A DNA stretch of 64,000 bases from Alphaproteobacteria bacterium. Lineage in GTDB: Bacteria > Pseudomonadota > Alphaproteobacteria > JAEULC01. Positions 42,118-59,262 of this stretch are shown in pieces. Position 1 is the first letter of the stretch. Each line of letters starts with the position of its first letter. The DNA lies in NCBI GenBank assembly GCA_020846275.1, contig JADLEG010000183.1, positions 9,693 to 73,692 of the forward strand, given 5' to 3'. A program made the position numbers and the translations under genes. The notes under the pieces are model-generated. The model worked only from the letters and a program-made list of their open reading frames with translations, had not been told where the DNA came from and searched no databases.

Positions 42118-44193
42118 ATGGGCATTGCCGCTCGCCATCTGCCGGGATACGCCGTCACCGCCGCGGTGGGCCTGCTGCTGTTCGTGTTCATCGCGTTGCC
42201 GATCGGCTTGGTCTTGGTCGAGAGCGTCCGCCTCGCCGGACCGATTCCGCTCGCGGAGATGTCGCGCATCACCCAGGGCGGCCTCGACCGGCTCGACCCC
42301 GATGATCGTCAACGCCAGATGACGCGGTGGATTGCAACGCTGAAGCCGGACGAGCGCACAGCGGCGGTTGCGGCGGCGATCGAGCTGTTGGGCCATCGGG
42401 TCCCATGGGATCGCAATGCGCCCTTCGACGACCAGGCCGTAGCAGCGGCCGCCGCCGTCGACGCCATGAGCGCCGCCGACCGCAAGAAATTCGATGCGAT
42501 CTATCCCCTGGCGGTTGCCACCGTGCACAAGCGCATCCCGCTGGCATTCCGCCTGCGGGACAAGATTTCGCCGGAAGAGTTCGATGTCCTGCGCGAGGGG
42601 GTCCGCCAGGGCTATGGGCTCGACCACTATGTCGAGGTCCTGACATCGCCGCGCCTGCACAAGGCGTTCCGCAACAGCCTCGTCCTCTCCTCGACGGTGT
42701 CCGTCCTGACGACCGTGCTGGGCTTCGCGATCGCCTACGGCATCAATCGCAATGCGATCTTCTGGCCGCGACTGGTGCGTTACCTGGCGATGGTTCCGCT
42801 TGTGTCACCGCCGGTCGTGATCGCCACCGCCGCCATCCTGTTGTTCGGCCGCAACGGCGCCATCACCAAAGGGCTGCTGCAGGATCATCTGGGTTGGATC
42901 AATGCGGACACGGCGAACCTCTACGGCTGGAGCGGTGTGATCCTGGCGCAGATATTGGGTCACCTTCCGGCCGCGTTCATCGTGCTCGACAATGTCCTTT
43001 CCAAGCACGATGGCCGGATCGAGGAAGCGGCGGCCGGCCAAGGCGCCGGCGCCTGGCAGGTATTCACCCAGGTGACGCTGCCGATGGCGCAGCCCGGCAT
43101 TGTCCGCAGCCTGATCCTGGTCTTCATGCTGATCATGACCGATTTCGGGAATCCGCTGGTCATCGGCAAGGACATCCCGGTCCTTGCGGGGATCCTGTAC
43201 GATGAAATGACCGGCTTCCAGAACACGCGGCTCGCCGCGGTGCTTGCGGTATGGCTGATCGTGCCGGCACTGTCGGTCTACGTGCTGGTCGAGCGTCTGG
43301 GCCGCCGCAAGCGTTATGCTTCGTCCGGCGGCGCCCCGCCGGAGTTGCCGGTGCCGGCGACAACCCGTGCGCTCCTTACGACGGTGGCCTGGTCCGTCGT
43401 GGGGATGATGGTCGTGCTTTACGGCTCCATCGTATTCGCCTCCTTCGTGAAAATCTGGCGCGTCGACAATTCATTCACCCTGGCCTGGTACACGTCCAGC
43501 GGCATTGCCGGCTTCGTGTCTGGCCAGCGCGGGGTTAGCGTCGTGCTGGACAGCATGAAAGTCGCCGCCATTGCCGCTCCCATCGGCGGCCTGCTCGCCG
43601 TCACCCTCGCGTATCTGGTCGAGCGCGTGCGCGCGCCCGGCAGCAATCTCTTGGGATTCGTTGCGCTGCTGCCGGCGGTCCTGCCGGGCGTCATCCTGGG
43701 CGTCGGCTATGTCGTGGCATTCAACCTGCCGTTCGGGATCAAGAGCATCGCGCTGACCGGCACAATGTGGATCCTGGTGATCAACATTCTGTTCGCCAAT
43801 ATCTTCATCGGGTACCTAGCGGGACGGGCGTTGCTGCAGCGCTACGACGAGTCGATCGACGAGGCCGCCGAGGCCCTCGGCGCATCGCTTTGGCAACGCT
43901 TCAGCAGGGTGACCTTACCGACCATGCGCCATGCGCTGATGCTGGGAACCCTGTATATTTTCGTCCATGGGCTGACCACGCTGTCCGCCGTGGTCTTCCT
44001 GGTAAGCCCGGCGCATCGCCTGGCGTCCGAGGCCATATTCGACACGGCGGACAAGGGGTACTACGGCGTGGCCAGCGCGCTCAGCGTCACAATCCTGGTG
44101 ATCGCAGTGACCGTGATGGCCGCTATCCATCTGACCGAACGCTATGGGCCGGTTTGGGCGCGGGTCGGCGCCGCCGCGTCCGGCCGCACCTAG
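42118..44193 (+). CDS. ABC transporter permease, fused two-domain
   Basis: 691 aa with two BPD_transp_1 domains and about 12 predicted TM helices. Confidence 0.85.
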   Translation: MGIAARHLPGYAVTAAVGLLLFVFIALPIGLVLVESVRLAGPIPLAEMSRITQGGLDRLDPDDRQRQMTRWIATLKPDERTAAVAAAIELLGHRVPWDRNAPFDDQAVAAAAAVDAMSAADRKKFDAIYPLAVATVHKRIPLAFRLRDKISPEEFDVLREGVRQGYGLDHYVEVLTSPRLHKAFRNSLVLSSTVSVLTTVLGFAIAYGINRNAIFWPRLVRYLAMVPLVSPPVVIATAAILLFGRNGAITKGLLQDHLGWINADTANLYGWSGVILAQILGHLPAAFIVLDNVLSKHDGRIEEAAAGQGAGAWQVFTQVTLPMAQPGIVRSLILVFMLIMTDFGNPLVIGKDIPVLAGILYDEMTGFQNTRLAAVLAVWLIVPALSVYVLVERLGRRKRYASSGGAPPELPVPATTRALLTTVAWSVVGMMVVLYGSIVFASFVKIWRVDNSFTLAWYTSSGIAGFVSGQRGVSVVLDSMKVAAIAAPIGGLLAVTLAYLVERVRAPGSNLLGFVALLPAVLPGVILGVGYVVAFNLPFGIKSIALTGTMWILVINILFANIFIGYLAGRALLQRYDESIDEAAEALGASLWQRFSRVTLPTMRHALMLGTLYIFVHGLTTLSAVVFLVSPAHRLASEAIFDTADKGYYGVASALSVTILVIAVTVMAAIHLTERYGPVWARVGAAASGRT

Positions 44194-44201
44194 GGGCAGA
44201 G

Positions 44202-45542
44202 ATGAACCGGCAGGAATGGCAGGAACGCAATGTCGGCGAGGACGGGCGCTCTTGGCTGGACCGCGACGCCGTTGCGTATCTGCACCAGGCCGGGTCGACG
44301 CCCTGCATCACGTCGATCCAGTCCGCCGACGGAGTGTGGCTGGAAGCCCATGGCGGCAAGCGCTATCTCGATCTCTACGGCAACAGCGTCCACCATGTCG
44401 GCTATCGTCATCCGCGGATGATCGCAGCGCTGACGGCCCAGCTGAACGAGCTGACCTTCGCGCCGCGGCGATTCACGAACGAGCCGGCAGTACGGCTGGC
44501 GGAAATGTTGTTGAAGCGTTGGCCGGGCGGCAGGGGCCAGGTGCTCCTCACAACGGGCGGATCCGATGCGATCGAGTTGGCGATGAAGATCGCCCGCGTC
44601 TCGACCGGCCGGTACAAGACCATCTCGTTCTACGATTCCTATCATGGGAACGGCTTCGGCGCGCTCAGCGTCGGCGGGAGGTACGCCGACCGCTCTCCGC
44701 GGTTGGGGCCGCTGCTCGAAGGCGCCCTGCACGTTCCGCCGTTCTACGCCCGCGATGACGCCTGGGATACGCCGGCCGAAGCGTCGCTGGATGCCATGCG
44801 CTACGTCTTCGCGCGCGAGCGCGACATAGCGGCGGTGATTGCCGAGCCGATCCGTTCGACCCCGCACATCCCGCCGGATTGGTATTGGCCGGAGGTCCGC
44901 AAGCTGTGCGATCAACATGGCGCGCTGCTGATTTTCGACGAGATCCCAACCGGGCTTGGCAAGATGGGCAAGCTGTTCACCAGTGAGCATGTCGGCGCCC
45001 GGCCCGACATGACCGTGCTGGGCAAGGCGCTGGGTGGCGGCGTCGTACCGGTCGCAGCCGTGATCGCGCGAAGCGACCTGAACTGCGCGACCGAGCTGTC
45101 CCTGGGCCACTACACGCACGAAAAGAATCCGTTTTGCGCGCGCGCCGCGCTGACCATGCTGCAGATCGTCGAGGACGAGGGACTCGTCGAGCATGCCGCC
45201 ACGCTCGGCGCGCACGCGTTGACGCGCGTGGCGTCGATGTCCACACGCCAGCCCCTCGTGAAATGCGGCCGCGGTCGCGGATTGCTGTTCGCAATCGAAC
45301 TGCAGTCGGCCGGCGCCGGGAAGCCGGTGAACGAGATCGTGCAATCCGTCTTTTGGCGCGTGCTGGATCGAGGAATAAATCTGTCGGCAAGCGAGGGCCG
45401 CGACCTCTCCATCACGGCACCTCTTGTCATTTCACGGGACCAGCTAGATCACGCCCTTGATCAGATCGAAGGCGCAATAGCGGAGGAATGGGGCGGATTG
45501 AATTCTGCAAGTCGACCTGGTCACCGTGGCGGGACCAGCTAG
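44202..45542 (+). CDS. class-III (omega) aminotransferase, PLP-dependent
   Basis: 446 aa. …TTGGSDAIELAMKIAR…, FDEIPTGLGKMGKLF (PLP-lysine region), VLGKALGGG. The ATG lies 9 nt after the permease stop. The upstream 145 aa of the ORF-track frame was rejected. Confidence 0.85.
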   Translation: MNRQEWQERNVGEDGRSWLDRDAVAYLHQAGSTPCITSIQSADGVWLEAHGGKRYLDLYGNSVHHVGYRHPRMIAALTAQLNELTFAPRRFTNEPAVRLAEMLLKRWPGGRGQVLLTTGGSDAIELAMKIARVSTGRYKTISFYDSYHGNGFGALSVGGRYADRSPRLGPLLEGALHVPPFYARDDAWDTPAEASLDAMRYVFARERDIAAVIAEPIRSTPHIPPDWYWPEVRKLCDQHGALLIFDEIPTGLGKMGKLFTSEHVGARPDMTVLGKALGGGVVPVAAVIARSDLNCATELSLGHYTHEKNPFCARAALTMLQIVEDEGLVEHAATLGAHALTRVASMSTRQPLVKCGRGRGLLFAIELQSAGAGKPVNEIVQSVFWRVLDRGINLSASEGRDLSITAPLVISRDQLDHALDQIEGAIAEEWGGLNSASRPGHRGGTS

Positions 45543-45609
45543 AGCGGGATGGCGGCACGCGGTTGCGATCCGACGGTGGCTCGGTATTGGCGAGGTTCGC
45601 TCGACATCC

Positions 45610-47145
45610 TCACAAGAGATCTTTCTCCGTCAGCGTTTGTTCCATTTTGGCATTCGTCCACGCTCGACCGAACGCCCTGCTTAGGTAGTGTTCGTATTCC
45701 GCGGAAAATGCATTCGCGTCCTTGGAAGGATAGTGCCGCGCCAGTGCCGCGGCGACGTCGGGCAATGTGGATAGGCCGAGATCGATTGCCCATCCCCACC
45801 CTGTCCTGCCAAACATTACATCGGCGACGGACGCTGGCGCTTCACACCGAACGATGTGATCGAGATCAACTCCTTTCGGGATGCTCGCCCCAGGAGTGCC
45901 GGCCTTCACGGTCGCTCTCGAAGGAACGCCCAACCTGTCTGCAACGCAGGCAAGAACGTCCCTGGATGTGATGGCATGATCGGCCAGGCGTCCCCACGAC
46001 ATGCTGAGCCAAAGCGAGCGACCTTTGCGCTGGTCCACGTAGATCCGACGCTTCCACCCGCCGAGCGGATTGCCCGGCTCGAAGGTCGCCGGACGCATAC
46101 CCGCCCATCGAAATAGCACGTCCTTCCGTGTGATGCTGGCACCCGGGATCACAGCGCCAGCTTCGCGCAACAGCCTGTCGATGTCTTCATCGCCCGCCTC
46201 GACCTGATCGCTTGCACCGTCGATCGCCGTCTCGGAGGGGCCTATGATGTGGAAGTCCTTCCACGGCAAGCAGATGAACATATGGCCGATGGTGTTGCGG
46301 CTGACGATCCCGACGTCCCGGAAGGCAGGCGGAAGGCGAACGGCGAAGTGACAGCCCTTGTTTGGTGTGACCGTCGGCCCGGCATCGGCATCGGCAAGCC
46401 GATTGACGCCGTTTGACCAAGGCCCCGCCATATTGACGACGACGCGCGCGATCACCTGCGGACGGCTTTTCCCCGTCAAACTATCGACAAGAGTCAGACG
46501 CCATCCGCCCTCGCACGCCTCAGCGCCCGTCAGCGTCACATAGTTAAGCACGGTGGCGCCGTAGCCGGCAGCTTCGAGCGCATACTCGACGCACACACGT
46601 TCCGGCCAGTCAAACACCAACTCCGAATAAGAGGCAATTCCCACAAGATCGTTTCCGAGATACGGCGCCAGTGGATGAGATATGAGGCTCTGCTTCGAGG
46701 TTCGGCGATAGTTCAGCGGAACCGAGTACCCGCCCATGCCCTTGAGCATGGCGAAGGCGAAATCGAACTGCCAGGGCTTGACGGCGTCGGCCTCGCGCAG
46801 GGGAATGTGAAGGGTGACTGGCTTCAGGCGCCCCGGCAGCTCTTGGGACAGGCGCTCGCGCTCCCGCATCATATTGCGAGCAAGAAGCACATTACTCAGC
46901 TTCTCGCCGAGCGTCCGAGCGTCCTTGGCAATGGCGAGATAGTTGAGACCGCAATGAAACATGCGGCTGGACCGGGACGTACTCTCCGAGCCGAAATCGT
47001 TCCTCTCCACGAGGAGCACGTTGTAGCCGGCAGCAGCGAGCGTCTTGACAACCGCGCTGCCATTGATGCCGCCGCCGATAACCGCGGCATCGAACGATCG
47101 ACCGTCTAGTTCGGCCAAGTTGTCGCGGGTCAGAAAGCTAGCCAC
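45610..47145 (-). CDS. FAD-dependent oxidoreductase, glycerol-3-phosphate dehydrogenase (GlpD)-like
   Basis: FDAAVIGGGINGSAVVKTLAAAGYNVLLVERNDFGSESTSRSSRMFHCGLNYL is a GlpD-type N-terminus. I chose the GTG at 47145, which overlaps the upstream OCD stop. A TTG at 47118 is an alternative. The longer ORF-track start overlaps the OCD gene by 130 nt and was rejected. Confidence 0.7.
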   Translation of the reverse strand: MASFLTRDNLAELDGRSFDAAVIGGGINGSAVVKTLAAAGYNVLLVERNDFGSESTSRSSRMFHCGLNYLAIAKDARTLGEKLSNVLLARNMMRERERLSQELPGRLKPVTLHIPLREADAVKPWQFDFAFAMLKGMGGYSVPLNYRRTSKQSLISHPLAPYLGNDLVGIASYSELVFDWPERVCVEYALEAAGYGATVLNYVTLTGAEACEGGWRLTLVDSLTGKSRPQVIARVVVNMAGPWSNGVNRLADADAGPTVTPNKGCHFAVRLPPAFRDVGIVSRNTIGHMFICLPWKDFHIIGPSETAIDGASDQVEAGDEDIDRLLREAGAVIPGASITRKDVLFRWAGMRPATFEPGNPLGGWKRRIYVDQRKGRSLWLSMSWGRLADHAITSRDVLACVADRLGVPSRATVKAGTPGASIPKGVDLDHIVRCEAPASVADVMFGRTGWGWAIDLGLSTLPDVAAALARHYPSKDANAFSAEYEHYLSRAFGRAWTNAKMEQTLTEKDLL

Positions 47146-48085
47146 GATTGTCACCGGCAGGAGTCGCGACGGCATCGGCCTCTTGCTTGCAGAGTTCGTA
47201 GGCGAGTCTGATGTCGATTGCTCCGAGGCCCGTCGGCAAGAAGTAGCCTCCGCTTCCGCCGCCAAAGCCATTCGCCTCCAGAACGGAGAGCAAGGACGAG
47301 GGGGTGACCTTTTCGAACGCCGCTATATTGCCGTCGCGTGAAAGGGCATCGAATTGCGGCAGGTCGTCGACGACGAACGTACTGTCGGCTGGAAGTCCTT
47401 GTGTATCGAACGACCTGCCCAAATCGACAAGACTGCAGAAGCAGGATTGATCGAGCCACTCGGCCTTAAGCAGCGTGCTCGAGGGACTAGGCGTGCTGGA
47501 AATTACGATGTCGGCATCGTGCACGCACTCCTGTAGAGATCCGTAGGCGTGAGCCTCACAACCCAATGCCTGGCGCGCGAAATCGGCAAATTGCGACGCG
47601 GTTTCCATTGATCGGCTATATGAAGCGACACTGCGGACTTCAAAACGTTGTGCGAAGAACGCGAGGTGAAGGCGGGCCTGTTCACCGCAGGCGACAAAGG
47701 CAATTCGATGGCTGTCTCGGCGAGCCAAGGCCAGTGCGGCGAGAAGGCTGACGCATGCAGTCCTTGTTGCCGTGATCCTTCTCGCATCGACGACTGCAAA
47801 CGGCTTCGCGCTGTCCGTCTTGCTCAGTACGATGACTGAACCGCCCCGGCCGCCGGCCGACGGTCCCGAAGTCGTGCCAAGCCATTTGACCCCCGCAATG
47901 CCGACCTCTTCCAGTATCGCGGGGAAAGCCATGAAACGGACACCGTCCCGGGTCGAGATGGTAGGCCGGGGAGCAACGACGATGTCGCCGCGTGCTATTC
48001 CATGGAGCGTGTTCTCCGCGATCGGAATGACTGTGTCCGGAGTCAGTCGAAAAGCCTGAACGGCATCGTCGGAGATGAACTGCAT
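47138..48085 (-). CDS. ornithine cyclodeaminase/mu-crystallin family protein
   Basis: MQFISDDAVQAF… N-terminus and Rossmann region typical of OCD/ketimine-reductase proteins. I chose the internal ATG at 48085; the ORF track starts at 48130. Confidence 0.75.
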   Translation of the reverse strand: MQFISDDAVQAFRLTPDTVIPIAENTLHGIARGDIVVAPRPTISTRDGVRFMAFPAILEEVGIAGVKWLGTTSGPSAGGRGGSVIVLSKTDSAKPFAVVDARRITATRTACVSLLAALALARRDSHRIAFVACGEQARLHLAFFAQRFEVRSVASYSRSMETASQFADFARQALGCEAHAYGSLQECVHDADIVISSTPSPSSTLLKAEWLDQSCFCSLVDLGRSFDTQGLPADSTFVVDDLPQFDALSRDGNIAAFEKVTPSSLLSVLEANGFGGGSGGYFLPTGLGAIDIRLAYELCKQEADAVATPAGDNRG

Positions 48086-48232
48086 TCTAGCCTTCGTAAT
48101 CGTTCCACCCGCAAGTCTCGCGAGGCGCAACAGTCCGTTGAGTGTTCAATCTTCTACGATCTGCATCGGAAGCGGCGTGGGCATGAGCGGAGTTCTGCAG
48201 GAATGCGGCTCCCAATGAGGCAAGCCGAAGCG

Positions 48233-48952
48233 TCATGCGCGTTTTCGGACTCGGCGCGGCGGGAGGGCCGCTTGCTCCTGCTTGTATCGACGCAAGGCTT
48301 CCAGGGACGACCCCAGGTCGGCGAGAATGGAGTTTCGCAATTCCTCCGGGTCGCGACGTTCCGCTGCCTCTATGATGTCTTCGTGGCGCCGATGATCCCC
48401 GCGCCCCTTGTGCAATAGGGGATACATGTACCGCAAGGTCGGCCCGATTCTCAGCCAAAGAATGCGTGCAAATTCGAGGCGCAATGGCGATTCGGCACGC
48501 TGGTATATCAAGAAGTGGAATACCGAGTTCAGCTGAAGAACCTTCTGGTAGTCGCCAGCGTCGAGGGCAGCAAGAAAGGACTCTTGTGTATCCTTCAAAT
48601 TCTGGACGTCGGTATCGGTGATCTTTTTCGCGGCGGCGATCGCCATGTCGCCTTCGAGCGTGCGCCTGATATCGAATATTTCCGCAATCTCGTCCAAGCC
48701 CCGTTCCGGAACAACGATCGCGCTTTTTTCGGTGACGCCCAGCACTCCGTCTGCCACGAGTCGCAATACGGCTTCGCGCACGGGCGTGACGCTCGCCCCC
48801 ATCTCGACCGCCAACCGACGCACGTTGATACGCTCCTTCGGTGCGTACGAGCCGGCGATAATGGCCCCCACTAGCTGCCGGTGAATTTGCTCGGCGAGCG
48901 TGTCGCCCCGGGACAATGCTTCATAGTTCAAGATGTCCCCCACCCGATTCAT
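48233..48952 (-). CDS. GntR family transcriptional regulator (FadR/FCD subfamily)
   Basis: 239 aa. HTH …ERINVRRLAVEMGASVTPVREAVLRLVADGVL plus an FCD domain. Confidence 0.85.
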   Translation of the reverse strand: MNRVGDILNYEALSRGDTLAEQIHRQLVGAIIAGSYAPKERINVRRLAVEMGASVTPVREAVLRLVADGVLGVTEKSAIVVPERGLDEIAEIFDIRRTLEGDMAIAAAKKITDTDVQNLKDTQESFLAALDAGDYQKVLQLNSVFHFLIYQRAESPLRLEFARILWLRIGPTLRYMYPLLHKGRGDHRRHEDIIEAAERRDPEELRNSILADLGSSLEALRRYKQEQAALPPRRVRKRA

Positions 48953-48962
48953 TTGACTTGCC

Positions 48963-49005
48963 TTGACAGTCTCGATCTTCGGAAATATGATATATCAAAT
49001 TGCGG
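48963..49005 (+). promoter_or_regulatory. sigma-70-like promoter with overlapping operator-like motif (copy 1 of 3)
   Basis: TTGACA-N17-TATGAT followed by ATATCAAATTGCGG; contains the palindrome GATATATC. It lies in the divergent region between the GntR gene and the dapA-family gene. Confidence 0.5.
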
Positions 49006-49045
49006 CGGAATCAACGGCTTTCGTTTATCACGGAGTTCTCCCTTC

Positions 49046-49981
49046 ATGGCAACCAATTGGAATGGCGTATTCCCTGCGATGGTGACCCCTTTCGCGGCGG
49101 ATGGCAGGCTCGATAAGTCGCAGATCGCCGAGCTGGCCGACCTACTCTTGTCCGAAGGGGTTTCCGGCATCGTGATCGGCGGAAGCACCGGCGAATATTA
49201 CTCGATGACCGTACCGGAAAGGATCGAGCTGTTCTCGATCGTCAAATCCCACGTTGCGGGGAAGGCGGTGCTCATTGCCGGCACCTCGTCGATCAACCAT
49301 GCCGAAACGTTGCAGCTGACTTCCGAGGCAAAGCAGATCGGTTATGACGGCTGCATGGTACTCCCTCCCGTTTACTCGCTACCGACGCCTGTGGAGATCG
49401 TCAAGGCGTTTGAAGACGTCGCTGCAATCGGCCTTCCGGTGATGGTGTACAACAACCCGGCGCGCGCCGCCGTCGGCCTCACGCCGGACCTGGTCCAGAA
49501 GCTGGCGCGAATCAAGAACATCGTCGCCTACAAGGAAAGCTCGCGCGATCTCTATCCGATCGCGGAAATCTTCCACACGAACCGCGACCGCCTCTCGCTG
49601 TTTGCGGGCCTCGAGCCCTATGCCGGCGCCTTGCTCTCTCGCGGTGCCGTCGGCATCGTCTCGACAATTTCAAACGTGTGCGCCCGAGAGGTTGTCGCCT
49701 ACTACGAAGCCTACAAGAACAATGATCGGGCGACGCTCGTGAGGGTGCAGCAGATCATCGATGAACTCTATGCCCTGATTCCGCGCGTGCGCATGTCGAA
49801 CTATGCGTTTGTGAAGTGCGCGATGAAGGCCCTCGGGCGGCCGGGCGGCTTTCCTCGTCGTCCGCATTACCTCGCCGATGAAACGCTCCTCCAGGAGATC
49901 GGCAGCGAGATCAAGAAGATCTACGCCCGTGCCGGCATCGCGCCATTGGGATCCGTTTCAGAAATGCGCAAGGCGGTGTGA
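49046..49981 (+). CDS. dihydrodipicolinate synthase/N-acetylneuraminate lyase (DapA) family protein
   Basis: 311 aa. …GIVIGGSTGEYYSMT…, Schiff-base Lys region …VAYKESS…. GGAG Shine-Dalgarno sequence. In-frame upstream ORF-track codons were rejected. Confidence 0.85.
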   Translation: MATNWNGVFPAMVTPFAADGRLDKSQIAELADLLLSEGVSGIVIGGSTGEYYSMTVPERIELFSIVKSHVAGKAVLIAGTSSINHAETLQLTSEAKQIGYDGCMVLPPVYSLPTPVEIVKAFEDVAAIGLPVMVYNNPARAAVGLTPDLVQKLARIKNIVAYKESSRDLYPIAEIFHTNRDRLSLFAGLEPYAGALLSRGAVGIVSTISNVCAREVVAYYEAYKNNDRATLVRVQQIIDELYALIPRVRMSNYAFVKCAMKALGRPGGFPRRPHYLADETLLQEIGSEIKKIYARAGIAPLGSVSEMRKAV

Positions 49982-50035
49982 TGCTATTGCGGCCCAGGTG
50001 AAGCGGCGCGCGGGCTCCAGTCGCCGCTCCTATCG

Positions 50036-51121
50036 TCATCGATCGGGATCGAGCATCGTGGTGGCGTGGCGCGGCCATCCGATCCGGACCTTTGTCCCTG
50101 CCGCCAAGCCGCCGATCTTGTCGCTGGTTAGGCAGGAGACAGTGACGTTGAGTCCATCGCCAACGTCGACCAGGAACTGGGTAATCTGCCCGGACAGGAT
50201 CACTTCAGAGATCGCGCCCACCAGGACGTTATCTTCCTTCTCCTCCGGCTCGAGAAATCGCAGCCGCTCCGGTCGGACCATCCATCCGACCTCTCCGCGA
50301 ACCGGTATGCAAGAGGAAGCAACCTTAATTGGGCCGAATTTGTCGTGGGCGATCACCGGATCGTCGCCTTGTCTATCGGCAACTCCTTGGAAAATATTCG
50401 TCGCGCCGAAGAAATCCGCGGAAAAGACCGAACTGGGGTTGGCATAGATTCGCCTTGGCGCGCCCACGTCCTTGATCTTGCCACCGCCCATCAGGCAGAT
50501 CCGATCCGACATGGTGAGCGCCTCCTCCTGATCGTGCGTCACATAGATCATGGAAAGCCCGAGATCGTCGTGAATGCGTTTGATCTCGAACTGCATCTGC
50601 TGACGAAGCTTGCGATCCAGCGCGCCGAGCGGTTCATCCATGAGAATCAATGGAGGCCGATAGACAAGCGCCCTGGCGATCGCGATGCGCTGCTGCTGCC
50701 CGCCGGAGAGCTGCTTCGGCCTACGGTCTTCCACGCCAGGCAGCTTGATCAGTTCCAGCGCCTCGGCGACCCGCTCCTTGACCTCGACCTTCGGCATCTT
50801 TCGGATCCGGAGCGGAAACGCGATGTTCTCGAACACTGACAAGTGCGGCATCAGCGCAAAGTTCTGAAACACCATGCCGATGCCCCGCACGCGCGCCGGC
50901 AGGTAGGATATGTCGCGACCATCGAGAAACAGGGATCCGGAGGTCGGGAAAAGCGCGCCCGAGATGATGTTTAGCAGCGTCGTCTTGCCGGAACCGCTCG
51001 GGCCCAGCAACGTGACGAACTCTCCCTTGCCAATGTCCAGCGAGACGTCGCTCAGCGCTTCGACGGAACCGTAGCGCTTGGTCACATTGGCAATTCTCAA
51101 AATGGGCGTTTCGCTATTCAT
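50036..51121 (-). CDS. ABC transporter ATP-binding protein (PotA-type)
   Basis: GPSGSGKTT, LSGGQQQRIAIARA, ILMDEPLGALD, and a TOBE C-terminus. ATG at 51121 (MNSETPIL…). Confidence 0.9.
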   Translation of the reverse strand: MNSETPILRIANVTKRYGSVEALSDVSLDIGKGEFVTLLGPSGSGKTTLLNIISGALFPTSGSLFLDGRDISYLPARVRGIGMVFQNFALMPHLSVFENIAFPLRIRKMPKVEVKERVAEALELIKLPGVEDRRPKQLSGGQQQRIAIARALVYRPPLILMDEPLGALDRKLRQQMQFEIKRIHDDLGLSMIYVTHDQEEALTMSDRICLMGGGKIKDVGAPRRIYANPSSVFSADFFGATNIFQGVADRQGDDPVIAHDKFGPIKVASSCIPVRGEVGWMVRPERLRFLEPEEKEDNVLVGAISEVILSGQITQFLVDVGDGLNVTVSCLTSDKIGGLAAGTKVRIGWPRHATTMLDPDR

Positions 51122-51184
51122 GCCGGGCCAACGACTCTCACTTGCTCCAAATCTCACCTCAACCGATCCAACCGCCGTCCCTGC

Positions 51185-51997
51185 CTAATTTTCCCGTTCC
51201 TCCGGCTTCTGAAAAGCCGCGTAGAATAGAATGATCGCGATCGATGTGAGCGCCAGCATCGTCGCGGCCGCCGCGATCTCCGGTGCCACTTCGACCTTGA
51301 GACTGCTGTACATTACGACCGGCAGCGTCGTCGCGCTCGTGCCGGCAATGAACCACGAGATAACGACCTCGTCGAACGAGATGAGGAACGCGAAGAGGAA
51401 AGCAGACGCCAGGGAATACCATATCTGCGGCACGACGACGCGCGTGTAGATGGCCATCGGCGTCGCACCCATCACCGCAGCGGCGGTCTCCACATTCTGG
51501 TCGATCTGTTTGAGGCCGGAGGTCACGACGACGATGACATAGGGAATGGTCAGGAGCGAATGCGCGAGCACCAAACCCGAGGTCGTGCCAATCAGTCCCA
51601 GTTGCGAAAAATAGAAATAGACCCCGAGCGCGATAACGATCGATGGCACCAGGATTGGGCTGAGGAGGATCACGCCCACCAGCTTCTGACCGGGGAATGC
51701 TCCTCGCACCAAGCCAAAGGCCGCAAGCGAGCCGATGAGCGTCGCCAGCATGGCCGTGCCACATCCGACGATCAGGCTCTCGACAAGCGAACCGGTCCAG
51801 ACCGGCGACGAGAAGAACCGCTCGTACAGTTCAAAGGAAAATGTGCGCGGAGGAAACGTCAGCGATGTCGCGCCGCCGAACGAGATCGGTATCGTCAGGA
51901 TGCTGGGAAGCGTTAGGAAAACATAGATGCAACCGATCAGAAGGGCGAAAAGCAACTCGCGCAGATTCCAGCCCGACGGTTCGAGCGGGCGGTTCAT
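51185..51997 (-). CDS. ABC transporter permease (PotC-like)
   Basis: 270 aa. BPD_transp_1. ATG at 51997. Confidence 0.85.
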   Translation of the reverse strand: MNRPLEPSGWNLRELLFALLIGCIYVFLTLPSILTIPISFGGATSLTFPPRTFSFELYERFFSSPVWTGSLVESLIVGCGTAMLATLIGSLAAFGLVRGAFPGQKLVGVILLSPILVPSIVIALGVYFYFSQLGLIGTTSGLVLAHSLLTIPYVIVVVTSGLKQIDQNVETAAAVMGATPMAIYTRVVVPQIWYSLASAFLFAFLISFDEVVISWFIAGTSATTLPVVMYSSLKVEVAPEIAAAATMLALTSIAIILFYAAFQKPEEREN

Positions 51998-52884
51998 GTC
52001 AGCGGCTTCGATTGATCGGAAACTCGCGACAGTCCGAACACCAGCAGCCCGCTTGCCACGAGCAGCACCACCGCGACCGCCGACGACACGGTCCAGTTCA
52101 AGGTTTCGCGCGTGTAAAGGTCGATCAGGTTGGCAAGCATAATGTCCGTCCGGCCGCCCAGCAGGGCGGGGGTCACGAAGAACCCGAAGCCGATGATCAT
52201 GCACATTAGGGCGCCGGCTAGGATAGCAGGTGAGCTGAGCGGCAGCGTCACCCGCAAGAAGATGGTCCAGGGCGTGGCGCCCATGATCTCCGCCGCCTTC
52301 GCGAGTGTGCGGTCTTGCATGAGAAGATTTGTCAGGACGGGAAACACCACGAACGGGAGCAAATGATTCGACATTCCGATGAGGACGCCAATCCCATTGA
52401 ATATCAATGGAATCTCTGGATTCCCGCCCAATATCCAGCCGAGAACGCTGTTGATCAGCCCATTCCTTCCCAAGATGACCGTGAAGGAGTAGCTCTTCAC
52501 CAGGATGCTGGTCCAGAATGGAAATAGGACCAGCACCAATCCGATTGCCCGCTTTCGCGCAGACAGCCGGGAAAGGTAAAGCGCGAGCACATAGCCCAAT
52601 AGGACGCTTACCAGCGTGGCGAGGACCGCAATCTCGATACTCGTCCAGAGCACGCGCGAGAAAAGCGTGCTCGTGAGTAGCCAGCGGTACCCATCAAGCG
52701 AATAGCCGCCATGGCTCTGAAAGCTGAAGAGAACGATGTATCCGATCGGCACGGCGAAGATCGCGCCGAACAGCAAGATGGCGGGAGCGGCGAATTCCAG
52801 TCCTTGCCAGCGGCGAGGCCCCGACCACTCCGCCTTAGGGGGCGATGTGGTACCGAGGTTGCCTACGCTCTGGATCGACGCCAT
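51994..52884 (-). CDS. ABC transporter permease (PotB-like)
   Basis: 296 aa. BPD_transp_1. Its stop overlaps the downstream ATG (ATGA). Confidence 0.85.
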   Translation of the reverse strand: MASIQSVGNLGTTSPPKAEWSGPRRWQGLEFAAPAILLFGAIFAVPIGYIVLFSFQSHGGYSLDGYRWLLTSTLFSRVLWTSIEIAVLATLVSVLLGYVLALYLSRLSARKRAIGLVLVLFPFWTSILVKSYSFTVILGRNGLINSVLGWILGGNPEIPLIFNGIGVLIGMSNHLLPFVVFPVLTNLLMQDRTLAKAAEIMGATPWTIFLRVTLPLSSPAILAGALMCMIIGFGFFVTPALLGGRTDIMLANLIDLYTRETLNWTVSSAVAVVLLVASGLLVFGLSRVSDQSKPLT

Positions 52885-52913
52885 CTTCGCCGTCTAGGCG
52901 GATCATTGGACGC

Positions 52914-53972
52914 TCAGGTCAGCAGGAACTCCTGAAACCGCTGCTGAACGGCGGCGAATTCCACCGCCCACCAATCGTCGTTCTGAACGATATGATGCTT
53001 GCTCGACACGTCCGGCAGCCACTTCTTGCCTTCCGCACTGACCAGATCCATCGCACGCGGATTGCCAGGAAGGTAGCTGATCATTTCGGCGAATGCCGCC
53101 TGTCGATCCGGTCTGAGGCAGAACGCCACGAACCGCATGGCAACGTCTTTCCGCGGCGTGCCCTTCACGACACCGATATACTCGTGGCTGAGGAACGTCT
53201 GGTCCAGGTTGATTGCGAGCGGGGCCGGCGAACCGATGGTCGCCCTGACGCGGCCATTGGGCAGGTAGTCGAAGTCGACCTCGTTGGTGGTCAACAGCGT
53301 CACAAGCTGCGACGTCGAATCGGCCCATTTCGGCACGCTCGGCTTTAGCTTCTCGAGAGACTTGAGCGCCCGATTCACATCCAGCGGATAGAGGCGCGCC
53401 GGATCAACGCCGTCTGCCACGAGCGCGATCTCGAGCACGAAATCGGCACGAGCCCGCATCGAACGCTTTCCGGGGAATTTCTTTACGTCCCAGAACTGGG
53501 CGCAGTCCTTCGGCGCATTCTGCGCGTTATGCTTGCCGGCATTCCAACCAACGCCATAGGGCGTGTGATAGAAAGGGGCATAGTCCTTGCGTTCGCCGAG
53601 GACCAGGTCCTTGTCGGTGATGACAGCGGGATCCAAAGGCTCGAACAGCCCTTCTTTGGATCCTACCGGAAACCATGCGCCCCCTGCGTCGAACACGTCC
53701 CATTCGACGTTGCCCGCCGACACTTGCGCCTTCAAGCGGGCAAAATCCGGCACGCCGGAGAACACCACCTCGACGCCCGTTTCCTTGGTGAAGGGATCGG
53801 TGTAGGCCGCCTTGACCATGTCCTGATAGCTGCCGCCATAGGTCGGGAAGATCAGCCGCTTGTTCTGCGCCCGCGCGACCCTGGAGATGAACGGCATTGC
53901 CACAGCGGACGCTGAAGCCGCCAGAAATGCACGGCGATGCAAAGAGACATGGCCCCTTGTTTCCACGGTCAT
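52914..53972 (-). CDS. ABC transporter substrate-binding protein (family 1, PotD/PotF-like) with Tat signal
   Basis: 352 aa from MTVETRGHVSLHRRAFLAASASAVAMPFISRVARAQ, a twin-arginine signal. The upstream 67 aa of the ORF-track frame was rejected. Confidence 0.8.
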   Translation of the reverse strand: MTVETRGHVSLHRRAFLAASASAVAMPFISRVARAQNKRLIFPTYGGSYQDMVKAAYTDPFTKETGVEVVFSGVPDFARLKAQVSAGNVEWDVFDAGGAWFPVGSKEGLFEPLDPAVITDKDLVLGERKDYAPFYHTPYGVGWNAGKHNAQNAPKDCAQFWDVKKFPGKRSMRARADFVLEIALVADGVDPARLYPLDVNRALKSLEKLKPSVPKWADSTSQLVTLLTTNEVDFDYLPNGRVRATIGSPAPLAINLDQTFLSHEYIGVVKGTPRKDVAMRFVAFCLRPDRQAAFAEMISYLPGNPRAMDLVSAEGKKWLPDVSSKHHIVQNDDWWAVEFAAVQQRFQEFLLT

Positions 53973-54000
53973 CTCCCGTCGAGTTGCGCACGCTTGGGTG

Positions 54001-54045
54001 CTGCCATAATTTGAGATATCATATTGCGAATAACATTTCCGGTCA
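54001..54045 (-). promoter_or_regulatory. sigma-70-like promoter with overlapping operator-like motif (copy 3 of 3, minus orientation)
   Basis: The reverse complement reads TTGACC-N18-TATGAT followed by ATCTCAAATTATGG. It lies about 35 bp upstream of the SBP start at 53972. Confidence 0.45.
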
Positions 54046-54279
54046 AGCGCCGAATCGGTAACCGGGATGTCCGCGGTCGTGTTCGTAAAGACCATGCCCA
54101 AGCCCGTCGGTTGACGGTTGTAGTTTCGTCTGCCACGCGCGCGGGCCGCGCGCCGCGCAGACCAAATGGCCACTCCTCATCCGCAGGCCCGCGCCCAGGG
54201 TCTAATTGCCCGACGGCCTTCGCCTGGACATCGCTTGCTGAAATCTGCAGACCGCCGCCCAGCCGCGACGCCAAGCGGC

Positions 54280-54323
54280 TTGACAGGTCGTCAAACACAG
54301 AAATACGATATATCAAATTACGG
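54280..54323 (+). promoter_or_regulatory. sigma-70-like promoter with overlapping operator-like motif (copy 2 of 3)
   Basis: TTGACA-N18-TACGAT followed by ATATCAAATTACGG. It matches copy 1 at 21 of 23 positions. It lies about 180 bp upstream of the OYE-fusion gene. Confidence 0.5.
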
Positions 54324-54505
54324 TAGTTTCGATGAGCGGCTTCAATGACCGCGCGGCGCGCGCTGCAATCCAATTGTGGGCAAGCTTTGAAATGCTTGGC
54401 AGTCCGCATTTCAATGGTAGCGGTCGCCGCAGTCCGGAATATGACCAAGGCATTTGACGCTTGCGAAGCGCGGGGAAGCCGTCAATCACCCAGAGGGCCG
54501 TGGCG

Positions 54506-56545
54506 ATGACCAGTTACCAAGTGCTCCTGACGCCGTTCAAACTACGCAATCTGACGTTGCGCAATCGCTTCGTAAGCACGGCGCACGCGCCGGCTTATGG
54601 CGTCAACTCGATGCCCGGCGAGCGCTATCGCCTCTATCATGTCGAGAAAGCGAAAGGAGGGATCGGCCTGACCATGATCGGCGGATCGACCGCCGTTTCA
54701 CCTGACGCCGTCGCACCGTTCGGTCAGCTCACGCTGGCGGATGACCGCGCCATATCCGCCATCCGCGAGCTCGTTGAGGCCGTGCACAGCCACGGCGCAG
54801 CATGTTTCTGCCAAATCTCTCACCCAGGCCGGCGTGGCCGGTGGGATTCGGGATCTTGGCTCCCGCCGGTCGGCCCGTCTCATATCCGGGAACCCCAGCA
54901 TCGGGCCTTTCCAAAGGAAATGGAGGACTGGGACTTCGAGCGCATTGTCAACGACTACGAAGCCGCGGCGCGCCGTTGCAGGGCAGCCGGACTAGACGGC
55001 GCCGAATTGCTGTTCGCCGGCGGGCATCTCCTGCTGCAGTTCCTCTCGCCCGCCGTGAACATGCGCACCGATCAATATGGCGGAAGCCTGGAAAATCGCC
55101 TGCGCTATGCATTTGAAGTGATCGCCGCAGCCCGCCGCGGGCTCGGGGATGATCTGGTGCTAGGGGTCCGCCTCACCGCGGACGAGTTCATTGCCGAAGG
55201 ACTCAACCAAGCGGAATGTCTCGAGATCGCCAAGGCGATCGCCGCAACCGGCAATGTCGACTACCTGAGTGTCATGGCCAGTCAAACCTACGATTGGCGC
55301 TCGTCCACCTATTCGATTCCAAGCATGGCGTTTCCGCTTGCCCCGTATCTCTCGATGGCACGAGCCATCAAGGCGGCGGTGCCCGTCCCGGTCCTCCATG
55401 CCGGCCGCATTCTCGATCTCGCCACCGCTTCGCGCGCGATTGAGGAAGGCATGATCGACCTGGTTGCGATGACTCGAGCGCAGATCGCCGATCCTCACAT
55501 GGTCCGCAAATTGGCCGAGCGCCGCCCGAACGACATTCGCCCGTGCGTCGGCGCCAACTACTGCATCAATCGCATCTACGCACATGCGGAAGCGTTGTGC
55601 CTGCAGAATCCGGCGACGGGGCGCGAGGCGACAATGCCACACGTGTTCACGCGCTCCGAAACGCCAAAGAACATCGTGGTGGTCGGAGGCGGCCCCGCGG
55701 GCCTGGAGGCGGCACGCGTCAGCGCCGAACGCGGGCACAAGGTCACCCTCATCGAAGCCGAACCCAAGGTCGGCGGCCAGATCAATGTCGCGACCAAGCT
55801 CGGTTGGCGGGACGCGCTTGCGACCATTCCGCAATGGCTCGAGGACCAGTGCCGCAAGCTCGGCGTCGACATGTGGCTGGGCTACACGGCCGATGTCGCG
55901 ATGGTCGAGCGATTCAATCCCGACATCGTCATCGTCGCAACAGGCGGCTATCCCAACATCGGAGAGATCGATGGGGCGGAGCACGTGTTCAGCACCTGGG
56001 ACATCTTGGGTGGCCGCGTAAAGCCCGGAGAACGTGTGCTGATGTTCGACGATCAGGGCTCCGACTCGGGCATGAGCTGCGCTGATTTCTTGTCTCAGAA
56101 TGCTGGCCATCTGGAAGTGGTGACGCCCGAGCGACATCTTGGCATCGAGACCGGTTCGACAACCTATCCCGTCTACCTGGCGAATCTCTACAAGCGCGGC
56201 GCCGCGATTTCGCCTGATCTGCGGTTGCGCCGCGTAGAAACCAGAGGCAACGTCCTGCTAGCGGTGCTGCGCAATGAATACACGCTGAAGGAGGAAACCC
56301 GCGAGGTCGATCAGGTGGTCAGCGACCACGGGACGCTTCCCAACGCCGATCTCTATTTCGAGCTGAAGCCTCGCTCGATCAATCTTGGCGCGGTCGATTA
56401 TCATGCCCTGGTAGCGGGCAAGCCGCAGACGCACGGCGCAAACCCTGAAGGCAAGTACTTTGTCTACAGAGTTGGCGATTCAGTCGCAGGCCGCAACATC
56501 CATGCCGCGCTGTTCGACAGTCTCAGGCTGTGCAAGGACTTCTAA
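54506..56545 (+). CDS. NADH:flavin oxidoreductase (Old Yellow Enzyme) fused to FAD/NAD(P)-binding domain; N-methylproline demethylase (StcD)/2,4-dienoyl-CoA reductase-like
   Basis: 679 aa. OYE TIM-barrel N-terminus (…FVSTAHAPAY…, …GGHLLLQFLSP…), Cys-rich linker (…CVGANYCINR…), and a C-terminal VVVGGGPAGLEAA Rossmann domain. AGAGGG Shine-Dalgarno sequence. ATG at 54506. Confidence 0.8.
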   Translation: MTSYQVLLTPFKLRNLTLRNRFVSTAHAPAYGVNSMPGERYRLYHVEKAKGGIGLTMIGGSTAVSPDAVAPFGQLTLADDRAISAIRELVEAVHSHGAACFCQISHPGRRGRWDSGSWLPPVGPSHIREPQHRAFPKEMEDWDFERIVNDYEAAARRCRAAGLDGAELLFAGGHLLLQFLSPAVNMRTDQYGGSLENRLRYAFEVIAAARRGLGDDLVLGVRLTADEFIAEGLNQAECLEIAKAIAATGNVDYLSVMASQTYDWRSSTYSIPSMAFPLAPYLSMARAIKAAVPVPVLHAGRILDLATASRAIEEGMIDLVAMTRAQIADPHMVRKLAERRPNDIRPCVGANYCINRIYAHAEALCLQNPATGREATMPHVFTRSETPKNIVVVGGGPAGLEAARVSAERGHKVTLIEAEPKVGGQINVATKLGWRDALATIPQWLEDQCRKLGVDMWLGYTADVAMVERFNPDIVIVATGGYPNIGEIDGAEHVFSTWDILGGRVKPGERVLMFDDQGSDSGMSCADFLSQNAGHLEVVTPERHLGIETGSTTYPVYLANLYKRGAAISPDLRLRRVETRGNVLLAVLRNEYTLKEETREVDQVVSDHGTLPNADLYFELKPRSINLGAVDYHALVAGKPQTHGANPEGKYFVYRVGDSVAGRNIHAALFDSLRLCKDF

Positions 56546-56655
56546 GCTGCAGGGCGCATTGCTCGGACACCGATCGAAGCGCCGCACGAACGCTAGCAGA
56601 GCAGGGACCGGTTGGATTCCGCCATGCCTTAACTTGCGTGCCGGGCGCGATGCCA

Positions 56656-58569
56656 CTACGAGTTCTCCGCGGCCGACAGCCTCGCCAACGTCGTGATGCG
56701 AGCGGCAGACGCAGAGGGTGCGGCATACTCGATCGTCCCAATGATCGCTGCCGTGCTACCATTTTCGTGCAGATCGGCGACGCACGCTCCCGCTTCGGCT
56801 TGGCGAACACCGGCAAGGAGACCGCCTGCGGTCTGGGGATCGAACAGGAGCGCCAGGGTGGCTGGGTCCGCTTCGCCGTCGATCAAGCCGCGGAGCGAAA
56901 GATTCTCGGGCAGCAGGGTCGATGCGATGCCCTGGCCGACCAGGGAAAGGGCTTCGGGCAAGACGGGAATGGCGGATAGGTCGAGCCGGGCATCGCAGCC
57001 GCTTGCCGCCAGCATCTCGCCGAGATGCCCCGCCAGGCCGAACCCCGACACATCGGTCATCGCGGTCGCCCCGTGGGCGATCAGGATCTCCGCCGCCCGG
57101 CGGTTCGACCGTCGCATCTCCGTCAGGGCCGCCTCAATCGCCCGCGCTGACGTTCGGCCACGCATGGCGCCCGCAAACAAAATCCCGGTGCCGAGGAGCT
57201 TGGTCAGGATCAGCGCGTCGCCCGGCTTGAGGCCGCCCTTGCGAAGGGCGGAACCGGGTGCCAGCTCGCCCGTGACCGAGAAGCCCAGCGCCAGTTCGGG
57301 GCCTTCGCTGGAGTGACCGCCGACCAGCGCGACGCCCTCGCGGTCCAGGCAGGCGCGGGCGCCGGCGAGCACCTGGAACAGCGCCTCCTCCACCTTCGCC
57401 GCCGGCCCCGGTGGCACCACGCCGATCGCCAAGGCATAGCGTGGCAAGCCGCCCATGGCGTAGACGTCGCCCAGCGCATGATTGGCGGCGCAGCCGCCAC
57501 AACGCATTTCCGGCGGCGGAGAGGCGGTGCCCGCGGCCGGCCGCTGCTTCGCCATGCGCGCTGTCAGCCGCCCGGTGTCCTGGTACATCCGCATCCAGCG
57601 CCGGTCGATCCAGTCCTTGAGGGTCCAAACCCAGGCGCCCTCGGCCTTGAACCAGCCGCGCGACGCAACCGCACGGCGCTCGCCCGTGGAGATCAGGGCC
57701 AGGTGACGCTGCTGCGGCGTCCAGGGGCGCGGGGGGTTGCCGCGGGCACGCCGCCGCAGATTGGCCGCCAATGGCGGTCCCGCCCGTACGGCGAAAACGC
57801 CCGCCTTCGGGCGCGGCGTTTCCACCAGGGCCGCGCAATCGCCGGCGGCGAACACGTCCGCATCGCCGAGACTCTGCAGGGTCGGCCCGGCCGCGAGGAA
57901 CCCCTGCGGGTCAAGCACCAGGCCGGTGTCGCGAAACCATGCCGGCGCCGCCGCGTGCGTGGTCACCAGCACCGCATCGGCCGGCAGGCTCGGGCCGTCC
58001 GCAAGGTCGATCAGGCCGGCCCGCAGCGCCCGCACCTTGCAGCCTTCATGCAGCGCCACGGCGCGGCTCTGCAGGATGCGGCGGAACGCGTCGCGGACCT
58101 TCGGGTCATGCGAGGCAAGGATCTCGCCGTCCGTGACCAGGGTGAAGGCGAACGCCGCGCGGTCCTGTCCCGCCGCGTCAGCATCCGCGAGCAGGCGCGA
58201 GCGCACGGATAGCAGCAGCTCGACTCCGCCCGCGCCGCCGCCCACGACTGCGATCCGCCGCGGCCCCGCAAGGTCCCGGCACCGGGACCGCAGCGTCTCG
58301 AACTTCGCCAGGAACGCGCCGATCGGCTTGACCGCGATTGCGCACTGGGCAGCGCCAGCGATCTGTTCCAGGGCCGGTTCGATGCCCACGTCGATCGACA
58401 ACAGGTCATAGGCGATCGGCGGTCGCCCTTTCAGCAGCACGCGCTTTTCAGCACGGTCCAGCCCGACTGCCTCGGCGTGGATCAATCGCGCGCCGGCGAC
58501 GGCGGTCAGGCGCAGGAGGTCGAGGCGTTTGCCCGCGGCGACGGGTTCACCGTCTACGCCAACGCGCAA
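56656..58569 (-). CDS. NADH-dehydrogenase-like (pyr_redox) domain fused to SelD-like (selenide, water dikinase/PurM-fold) domain; apparently degenerate
   Basis: The C-terminal ~300 aa matches SelD (VYAMGG, VGGHSSEGPE, LTKLLGTGIL, AMTDVSGFGLAGHLGEM, FDPQTAGGLL). It lacks about 60 aa between the Cys motif and the FAMGG-equivalent. The N-terminal half is NDH-2-like with the NAD Rossmann IAVVGGGAGG and GDCA, but has no first FAD GxGxxG. An in-frame stop lies immediately upstream of the TTG start. Confidence 0.65.
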   Translation of the reverse strand: MRVGVDGEPVAAGKRLDLLRLTAVAGARLIHAEAVGLDRAEKRVLLKGRPPIAYDLLSIDVGIEPALEQIAGAAQCAIAVKPIGAFLAKFETLRSRCRDLAGPRRIAVVGGGAGGVELLLSVRSRLLADADAAGQDRAAFAFTLVTDGEILASHDPKVRDAFRRILQSRAVALHEGCKVRALRAGLIDLADGPSLPADAVLVTTHAAAPAWFRDTGLVLDPQGFLAAGPTLQSLGDADVFAAGDCAALVETPRPKAGVFAVRAGPPLAANLRRRARGNPPRPWTPQQRHLALISTGERRAVASRGWFKAEGAWVWTLKDWIDRRWMRMYQDTGRLTARMAKQRPAAGTASPPPEMRCGGCAANHALGDVYAMGGLPRYALAIGVVPPGPAAKVEEALFQVLAGARACLDREGVALVGGHSSEGPELALGFSVTGELAPGSALRKGGLKPGDALILTKLLGTGILFAGAMRGRTSARAIEAALTEMRRSNRRAAEILIAHGATAMTDVSGFGLAGHLGEMLAASGCDARLDLSAIPVLPEALSLVGQGIASTLLPENLSLRGLIDGEADPATLALLFDPQTAGGLLAGVRQAEAGACVADLHENGSTAAIIGTIEYAAPSASAARITTLARLSAAENS

Positions 58570-58844: not shown

Positions 58845-58963
58845 GCCGGCGCGTAGCAATCGACCGATTGCAAGCTCAGCGCCCCAGGGGGCGTATCTCT
58901 TGTAGGTAGGATTGCGAGTAGGAAGGCTCTCTATATGCCAAAATATTGATTTGGCATGATAAT

Positions 58964-59055
<92 letters not shown>

Positions 59056-59262
59056 GCACCTCTCCGCGGGGCTCCGCCGGCCCGCCCCGATTGCAGGGGC
59101 CGGCCCGGGGCTGGCGAGCGGCGGAACCTAGCCAAGACCGCGCCCGCTCGCAAGCGCGATTGCCCTTTCGCCCTGGATTCTATAGACAACCGGCGCTGCC
59201 GCGGCCTTGGCGAGAGGCCCGCGGGGCCATTCCGGCCCCGTCCCGGCGCATGGACGCGAACC

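Follow-up and report, generated by a model that had tools for sequence, protein, structure and literature searches.

A 64-kb stretch of contig JADLEG010000183.1 from an alphaproteobacterium (the window) carries a low-GC island in which an 18-bp palindrome, AATWTGATATATCAWATT, occurs three times (48984-49001, 54008-54025 and 54302-54319). Each copy overlaps the -10 box of a promoter of the form CTTGAC-N17/18-TAYGAT. We consider it likely, with good confidence, that the GntR/FCD regulator encoded in the island uses this palindrome as its operator and acts as a repressor of the promoters concerned. The conserved regulon is predicted to consist of a DHDPS-like enzyme, an ATP-binding cassette (ABC) importer and an HpbA-like flavin demethylase. 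The protein-DNA binding, the sign of the regulation, the start sites, the operon extents and the inducer are all inferred from the DNA sequence and its comparison across genomes.

The palindrome is far more frequent in the window than expected by chance, with three matches at up to three mismatches versus 0.00 expected (100 dinucleotide-preserving shuffles) and six strand-hits of the 13-mer core GATATATCAAATT versus 0.12 expected. A position weight matrix (PWM) trained only on sites of other genomes recovers exactly these three sites: operator O1 (48984..49001, palindrome AATATGATATATCAAATT, 37.6 bits), which is common to the divergent promoters of a dapA-like gene and the GntR gene; operator O2 (54302..54319, AATACGATATATCAAATT, 36.8 bits), 5' of a gene for an OYE fusion protein; and operator O3 (54008..54025, AATATGATATCTCAAATT on the minus strand, 30.8 bits), 5' of the ABC importer operon. 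The next independent position in the window scores 7.7 bits and the shuffle maximum is 17.7 bits, and neither pattern nor PWM scans of the whole window revealed a fourth independent palindrome in the 64 kb. As the initial annotation of this DNA had noted, the copies are confined to the low-GC island, all three lying in a block of 0.60 GC (45610-56545) between flanks of 0.69-0.70 GC. The same annotation had described three near-identical 43-bp units; reading of the sequence places them where it did, except that its end coordinate for copy 3 was 1 nt short, but, the -35 box aside, they resemble one another only over about 24 bp around the palindrome. A repeat finder aligns the copies over 24 nt around the palindrome only (92% and 75% identity to copy 1), and the 15-16 nt between -35 box and palindrome are unrelated among the three. 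The modules are thus a conserved -35 box and a conserved palindrome at a fixed distance, not contiguous 43-bp repeats.

A sigma70 consensus scan of positions 45000-57000 returned four sites, versus 3.5 expected by chance, and all four are on the palindromes. Two of them share O1. The promoter of the DHDPS/DapA-like gene (48963..48991, plus strand, 11/12 consensus positions) is made of TTGACA (48963-48968), 17 nt and TATGAT (48986-48991), followed by ATATCAAATTGCGG, while the reverse promoter of the GntR gene (49014-48987, minus strand, TTGATT-16-TATCAT, 9/12) also has its -10 box inside O1; these divergent promoters overlap completely, and their -10 boxes occupy the two halves of the palindrome. 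At O3, the promoter of the ABC importer operon (54046-54018, minus strand, 10/12) combines TTGACC (54046-54041), 17 nt and TATGAT (54023-54018), followed by ATCTCAAATTATGG, and at O2 that of the OYE-fusion gene (54280..54309, plus strand, 10/12) combines TTGACA (54280-54285), 18 nt and TACGAT (54304-54309), followed by ATATCAAATTACGG. Reading of all three copies therefore bears out the annotated layout of a -35 box, a 17-18 bp spacer and a -10 box inside the palindrome, and the genes it listed as served (dapA-like, the divergent GntR-OCD-GlpD unit, the ABC importer and the OYE fusion) are judged correct. The -35 regions read CTTGAC(A/C)G, which we take to fit the CTTGAC -35 consensus of rhizobial housekeeping promoters. 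If transcription begins about 7 nt past each -10 box, as predicted, the starts would fall at about 48998 for the DHDPS/DapA-like gene (leader of about 48 nt), at about 54011 for the ABC operon (39-nt leader, with GGGAG preceding the ATG at 53972) and at about 54316 for the OYE fusion (leader of about 190 nt). Given these starts, the palindrome covers roughly -14 to +4 of every promoter.

The presumed ligand of these sites is encoded next to O1: the 18-bp palindrome lies 32 bp from the start codon of the GntR gene (48233..48952, minus strand), a placement and two-fold symmetry that match what is expected of operators of FadR-like regulators. The 239-aa product has an N-terminal GntR winged helix-turn-helix domain (PF00392, 46.7 bits against a cut-off of 27, residues 19-81) and a C-terminal FCD effector domain (PF07729, 73.4 bits against a cut-off of 24.3, residues 91-210), in which H146 and H190 are invariant across 44 orthologues. 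Its closest solved structure is McbR/YncC (4p9f, E 6e-28), and the best NCBIfam model, PRK11414, scores 119 bits, under its cut-off of 225; by these matches it is classed as a homologue of McbR/YncC, not as an equivalog. The orthologous group is small and mostly metagenomic, and in the plasmid collection no encoded protein exceeds 37% identity to the regulator.

Orthologous loci retain both the site and its setting. A scan restricted to one genome per species gave 13 loci with regulators 49-68% identical to that of the window, from Phyllobacteriaceae, Phyllobacterium, Pseudaminobacter, Microbaculum, Paracoccus, Caballeronia, Advenella and several metagenome-assembled genomes (MAGs), covering alpha- and betaproteobacteria (Hyphomicrobiales, Rhodobacterales, Burkholderiales). 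The first discovery of sites in these loci used the window pattern alone, which locates the palindrome next to GntR in 12 of the 13. The palindrome adjoins the DHDPS-like gene in all 13, and in 12 it occupies the intergenic region from which GntR and the DHDPS-like gene diverge; the exception is L001, whose genes all run in one direction and whose palindrome stands 5' of the DHDPS-like gene, just past GntR. The CTTGACAG-N17/18-TAYGAT layout is kept in the same -35/-10 register as in the window, and a reverse GntR promoter (TTGACT, 16 nt, TATCGT) occupies the equivalent position. Locus L007, for instance, shows TTGACA, 18 nt and TACGAT followed by ATATCAAATTGTGG, with TTGACT-16-TATCGT in reverse, and the layout of its dapA promoter is identical to that of the OYE-fusion promoter in the window. 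The usual order is GntR, operator and then, on the opposite strand, one operon of DHDPS-like, polar-amino-acid-type ABC and OYE-fusion genes; the OYE-fusion orthologues that share an operon with DHDPS in other loci are 68-82% identical to that of the window.

Several relatives carry more than one site. L085 (regulator 80% identical) has two, one in the GntR/DHDPS intergenic region and one 5' of SBP_bac_8-type ABC genes, the latter (L085:3597) being the counterpart of O3; no site was found upstream of its OYE orthologue, although the contig ends 200 bp from that gene. The four sites of L088 (regulator 73% identical) precede DHDPS-x-OYE, an ABC operon, Fer2_4-Pyr_redox_2-Aldedh (divergent from GntR) and an enoyl-CoA hydratase/CoA-transferase pair, and L001 has one site 5' of DAO-Fer2-PyrRedox-ALDH and another 5' of DHDPS-ABC-OYE. 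In Phyllobacterium sp. SB3 (L002), two regulator paralogues about 5 kb apart (4637-5311 and 10001-10681) both have an operator. Taken together, the GntR and FCD domains, the palindrome at 13 of 13 orthologous loci and its near absence around paralogues support the annotation's reading of the three units as modules of a GntR/FadR-type regulator.

Beyond these loci, a planctomycete contig (L041, Tepidisphaeraceae) has the motif at 9013-9030 and 10769-10786 (19.8 and 18.5 bits), flanking a GntR gene whose product is only 28% identical to that of the window; gene and sites may together form a distantly related regulator-operator pair. On the Sinorhizobium medicae plasmid NZ_CP149882.1 (L090:9243-9263), with genes for a DHDPS-family protein (47% identity), a dapB-like protein and a GntR protein (36% identity), an inverted repeat GTGATAT-N-ATATCAC lies just 5' of the DHDPS gene; the half-site is similar and the spacing different, and the palindrome of the window was not found at this accessory-plasmid locus. 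Exact matches to AATWYGATATATCRWATT listed among metagenome contigs are chance occurrences in AT-rich DNA (GC 0.15-0.52), none of them near relatives of the GntR, DHDPS or OYE genes, and they are uninformative for a host of 0.67 GC.

Repression by promoter occlusion is argued because the palindrome sits over the -10 box and the start site. A regulator dimer bound there would cover about -14 to +4, including the -10 hexamer, and would block open complex formation by RNA polymerase. At O1, a single dimer would silence two overlapping promoters at once, that of the DHDPS-like gene and the reverse one of the GntR(-OCD-DAO) unit, and since O1 is common to both, autoregulation is implied. Dimers at O3 and O2 would likewise shut the ABC importer operon and the gene for the HpbA-like demethylase. 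Binding of an effector to the FCD domain would then free the repressor, switching on uptake and catabolism; this effector is probably the imported substrate, an N-methylated (hydroxy)proline-like imino acid, or else an intermediate formed early in its breakdown.

Some observations weigh against this assignment. The operator scan of the source genome covers the 64-kb window. At the Advenella locus (L011), the thirteenth of the set, the site is weaker (20-24 bits) and was found by the PWM. A Rhizobiaceae MAG (L005) also has two regulator paralogues about 5 kb apart (4764-5441 and 10001-10681), of which only the DHDPS-adjacent copy has an operator, the second being without a site. The near absence of the motif from the 1.19 Mb around paralogous GntR genes (up to 37% identity), where only two matches reach 18 bits, both in one locus, speaks for the assignment, but this specificity test is partly circular, the PWM having been trained on sites from the ortholog loci. 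Finally, the canonical operator signature of the GntR family is (N)yGT(N)xAC(N)y, with TNGT...ACNA in FadR-like members, and O1, O2 and O3 have no GT...AC pair in this orientation, their core being YGATAT/ATATCR.

This missing signature also speaks for the palindrome belonging to a different DNA-binding protein encoded elsewhere, with the GntR association a coincidence, as does an exact palindrome (AATTCGATATATCGAATT) at L113:589-606, in an unrelated metagenome contig of 0.67 GC, 10 bp 5' of a PadR-like regulator gene. Motif and GntR orthologue are nevertheless found together in 13 of 13 genomes and in two metagenomic relatives, always adjacent, the motif is nearly absent around GntR paralogues, and no other regulator gene is conserved in these loci; we regard a foreign owner as quite improbable. 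That the GntR protein binds the palindrome as an activator or dual regulator is, in our view, unlikely. Such behaviour is known for some FadR/McbR-like proteins, FadR-type regulators can activate some promoters, and the -10 boxes TACGAT/TATGAT depart from TATAAT, with only 9/12 consensus positions in the GntR-directed promoter. However, the site overlaps the -10 box and predicted start at four of four promoters, a position that would occlude RNA polymerase, whereas activators as a rule bind at the -35 box or further upstream, and the near-consensus -35 boxes imply that no activator is needed.

Could the shared sequence be no operator at all, just a strong promoter, AT-rich in its discriminator, that was carried along when the genes were copied? 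Twelve of the conserved positions are indeed explained by the -35 and -10 elements, and GC-rich genomes require AT-rich -10 regions, yet the two-fold symmetry reaches 6 bp either side of the -10 box and is kept across genera, whereas sigma70 promoters are not symmetric and a non-functional spacer varies freely; this makes such an account very improbable. We give the least credence to a mobile element, with the copies as its ends or relics, or to recombination sites through which the island was put together, an account that appears extremely improbable. The GC of the island below that of its flanks, the varying arrangement among relatives and an IS66 remnant in L085 would agree with it, but each copy is a self-contained palindrome 40-190 nt 5' of a start codon and correctly spaced from a -35 box, equivalent sites occur at equivalent places in syntenic non-island loci of many genera, and gene calls and domain profiles revealed no transposase or integrase among the island genes. 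An operator of the local GntR/FCD repressor hence remains our preferred assignment of the palindrome.

Behind the regulator, on the minus strand, lie a gene of the OCD_Mu_crystall family (ornithine cyclodeaminase/mu-crystallin; 47138..48130) and one for a GlpD-like FAD-dependent oxidoreductase of the DAO family (45610..47271; Pfam DAO, 130.9 bits), whose start overlaps the end of the OCD gene and which is 511 aa long in the JGI gene call. The gene order GntR-OCD-DAO is found again in L085 and L081. The PWM scan of the window revealed no operator of its own for the OCD gene, and both genes are probably co-transcribed with GntR, because the gap of about 100 bp has no terminator or promoter match. 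On the other side of O1, the DHDPS/DapA-family gene (49046..49981, plus strand; Pfam DHDPS, 204.5 bits) likely encodes a HypD-like pyrroline-hydroxy-carboxylate deaminase. The importer operon (50036..53972, minus strand, from domain profiles and gene calls) is of the PotABCD type, with a PotD-like substrate-binding protein (52914-53972), two PotB/C-like permeases (51994-52884 and 51185-51997) and a PotA-like ATPase (50036-51121).

The OYE-fusion gene (54506..56545, plus strand) encodes 679 aa in which an OYE-like FMN domain (PF00724, Oxidored_FMN) is joined to a FAD/NAD(P) domain (PF07992, Pyr_redox_2), the domain composition of HpbA/StcD; almost its whole length (99%) aligns, at 48% identity, with a gene annotated hpbA. 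Its chemistry is not fixed by homology, because the closest solved structures are the NCR and FadH reductases, followed by histamine and trimethylamine dehydrogenases. A riboswitch or structured leader 5' of this gene was rejected, as the unusually long predicted leader (about 190 nt, 54316-54509) has no Rfam match and folds like shuffled sequences (z = -0.05). Within the leader, a 54-codon open reading frame (ORF; 54345-54509, plus strand) runs up to the OYE gene, its stop codon and the OYE start codon overlapping in ATGA. Between the ABC and OYE promoters, which stand back to back, the 235-bp spacer is GC-rich, and short GC-rich inverted repeats (CCGTCGGTTGACGG; GCCACGCGCGCGGGCCGCGCGCCGCGC) lie at 54104-54170.

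Across the loci, the DHDPS-like gene, which is the least variable part of the regulon, and a transporter are always present. Genes for a three-subunit DAO/Fer2_4/Pyr_redox_2 enzyme and an aldehyde dehydrogenase (Aldedh) occur in L001, L007, L085 and L088 and are absent from the window island, which, like L085, has the OCD-like and GlpD-like genes behind the regulator. The three-subunit enzyme resembles D-hydroxyproline dehydrogenase and the DHDPS-family enzyme resembles pyrroline-hydroxy-carboxylate deaminase, and so the regulon as assembled from all loci would comprise the steps expected for conversion of an N-methylated hydroxyproline-type imino acid to 2-oxoglutarate. The gene set of importer, HpbA-like, D-hydroxyproline-dehydrogenase-like, DHDPS-like and Aldedh proteins thus indicates catabolism of an N-methylated (hydroxy)proline-like imino acid.

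Most relatives have one operator and a single DHDPS-ABC-demethylase operon. By comparison, the ancestral operon is split into three units in the window, each with its own promoter-operator module, and the transporter is of a different family (PotABCD-type); a tblastn search of the intergenic regions of the window with L007 proteins revealed no relic of the ancestral amino-acid-type ABC genes. Nearly all sites have the sequence R-Y-GGCA-R 3' of the palindrome, on one side only (49002-49008, 54001-54007 and 54320-54326 in the window; L085:3590-3596; L001:15077-15084). At the divergent sites it is the reverse complement of the spacer and -35 box of the GntR promoter (TTGACTTTGCCAC), and it is also found at sites that lack a divergent gene (window copies 2 and 3, L085:3597 and L001:15059). 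Because it persists there, as the vestige of a reverse promoter would, we suggest that the bidirectional control region was copied to give rise to the additional modules; an alternative is that R-Y-GGCA-R is an asymmetric extension of the operator. The GC of the island is below that of its host and the loci of the nearest relatives have 0.53-0.56 GC, for which reason horizontal acquisition of the island is compatible with the data. More speculatively, and with somewhat less than even confidence, we propose that this is an undescribed regulon for a distinct N-methylated (hydroxy)proline-like imino acid, with an HpbA paralogue feeding the D-hydroxyproline branch, that has grown by copying the whole bidirectional control region as a portable cassette before recruited or detached units. 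The units so equipped in the window would be the swapped-in PotABCD-type importer and the detached demethylase.

Parallels exist with several known systems. The hyp cluster of S. meliloti, which encodes the GntR-family regulator HypR, is presumably located on pSymB. A tblastn search against 159 Sinorhizobium plasmid and chromid records gave a best identity to the window regulator of at most 36%, and by this indirect test (identity to Sinorhizobium plasmid and chromid proteins) the regulator does not appear to be a HypR orthologue, as no GntR protein of a Sinorhizobium replicon in the plasmid collection exceeds that value. HypR represses hydroxyproline genes including the DapA-like hypD and is autoregulated in most genomes (RegPrecise regulon; PMC5343134). 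Both regulators belong to the GntR family and are usually autoregulated (here by prediction), with regulons that hold an ABC importer, a DapA-family enzyme and sometimes an OCD-family gene, together with a D-hydroxyproline oxidase or dehydrogenase and an aldehyde dehydrogenase (here putative and in some loci, the window island excepted), in an operon organisation that varies among genomes; in contrast to HypR, the conserved regulon here also includes the HpbA-like flavin demethylase. McbR/YncC of Escherichia coli, placed in the VanR subfamily, is reported to bind AT-rich sites containing ATATAT and to be freed by a small ligand (PMC13343897), which, like the repression of hydroxyproline genes by HypR, agrees with our assignment. 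It shares with the window regulator the GntR and FCD domains and is its closest solved homologue, yet its biology is that of biofilm, colanic acid and virulence with a folate ligand, and it is a broad binder of many AT-rich sites, unlike the defined 18-bp palindrome and local catabolic regulon described here. Regulators of the FadR subfamily (PdhR, LldR, ExuR/UxuR, GlcC) similarly combine a dimeric winged helix-turn-helix with an all-helical effector domain and a palindrome of about 17-18 bp over the promoter, control their own expression from either a divergent promoter or their own, and respond to the substrate of the pathway as inducer (predicted in our case), but their half-sites are (T)GGT/ACC(A) or GT...AC rather than YGATAT/ATATCR. 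The hpb clusters for proline betaine and hydroxyproline betaine are under the LysR-type activator HpbR (PMC3950512); they resemble the regulon in their HpbA-type FMN/FAD N-demethylase (48% identity), importers and proline-ring enzymes, and differ in having the LysR-type HpbR where we predict a GntR repressor, while the window island has no genes for a Rieske demethylase or an HpbD epimerase. Literature searches for the motif string together with GntR, and for GntR with hpbA, stcD or N-methylproline, returned nothing relevant. The regulator-site pair seems undescribed, though the type of switch is ordinary and well understood.

Adjoining the island, a separate plus-strand operon (38556-45542) encodes an MR_MLE protein of the enolase superfamily, a binding protein of the SBP_bac_6 family, an ATPase of the ABC type (41044-42111), a fused permease (42118-44193) and, at 44202-45542, an aminotransferase of class III. 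With 517 bits, this last protein falls just under the cut-off (525 bits) of the model for PbfA, the (R)-1-hydroxy-2-aminoethylphosphonate ammonia-lyase, and the operon is possibly an aminophosphonate catabolic unit; the PWM scan of the window found no GntR-type operator in it. A tRNA-Ser(CGA) gene (58974-59065, minus strand) is located about 2.4 kb beyond the right end of the low-GC block, with no integrase seen between it and the island, and the ORF 58956-60107 that begins over this tRNA is probably an artefact of translating it.

Conceptually, the switch is the textbook arrangement of a GntR repressor. What it would add is a ready-made regulator-operator pair, the 18-bp site and its orthologous group in alpha- and betaproteobacteria, which is predicted to tie poorly annotated DHDPS-like, HpbA-like, OCD-like and GlpD-like genes and ABC importers into one inducible pathway. 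This narrows the search for its substrate to N-methylated or hydroxylated proline-type plant or osmolyte compounds, and the pair could also be used as a biosensor part. At the level of genome evolution, the window illustrates how a regulon may stay intact despite the fragmentation of its operon and the exchange of its transporter.

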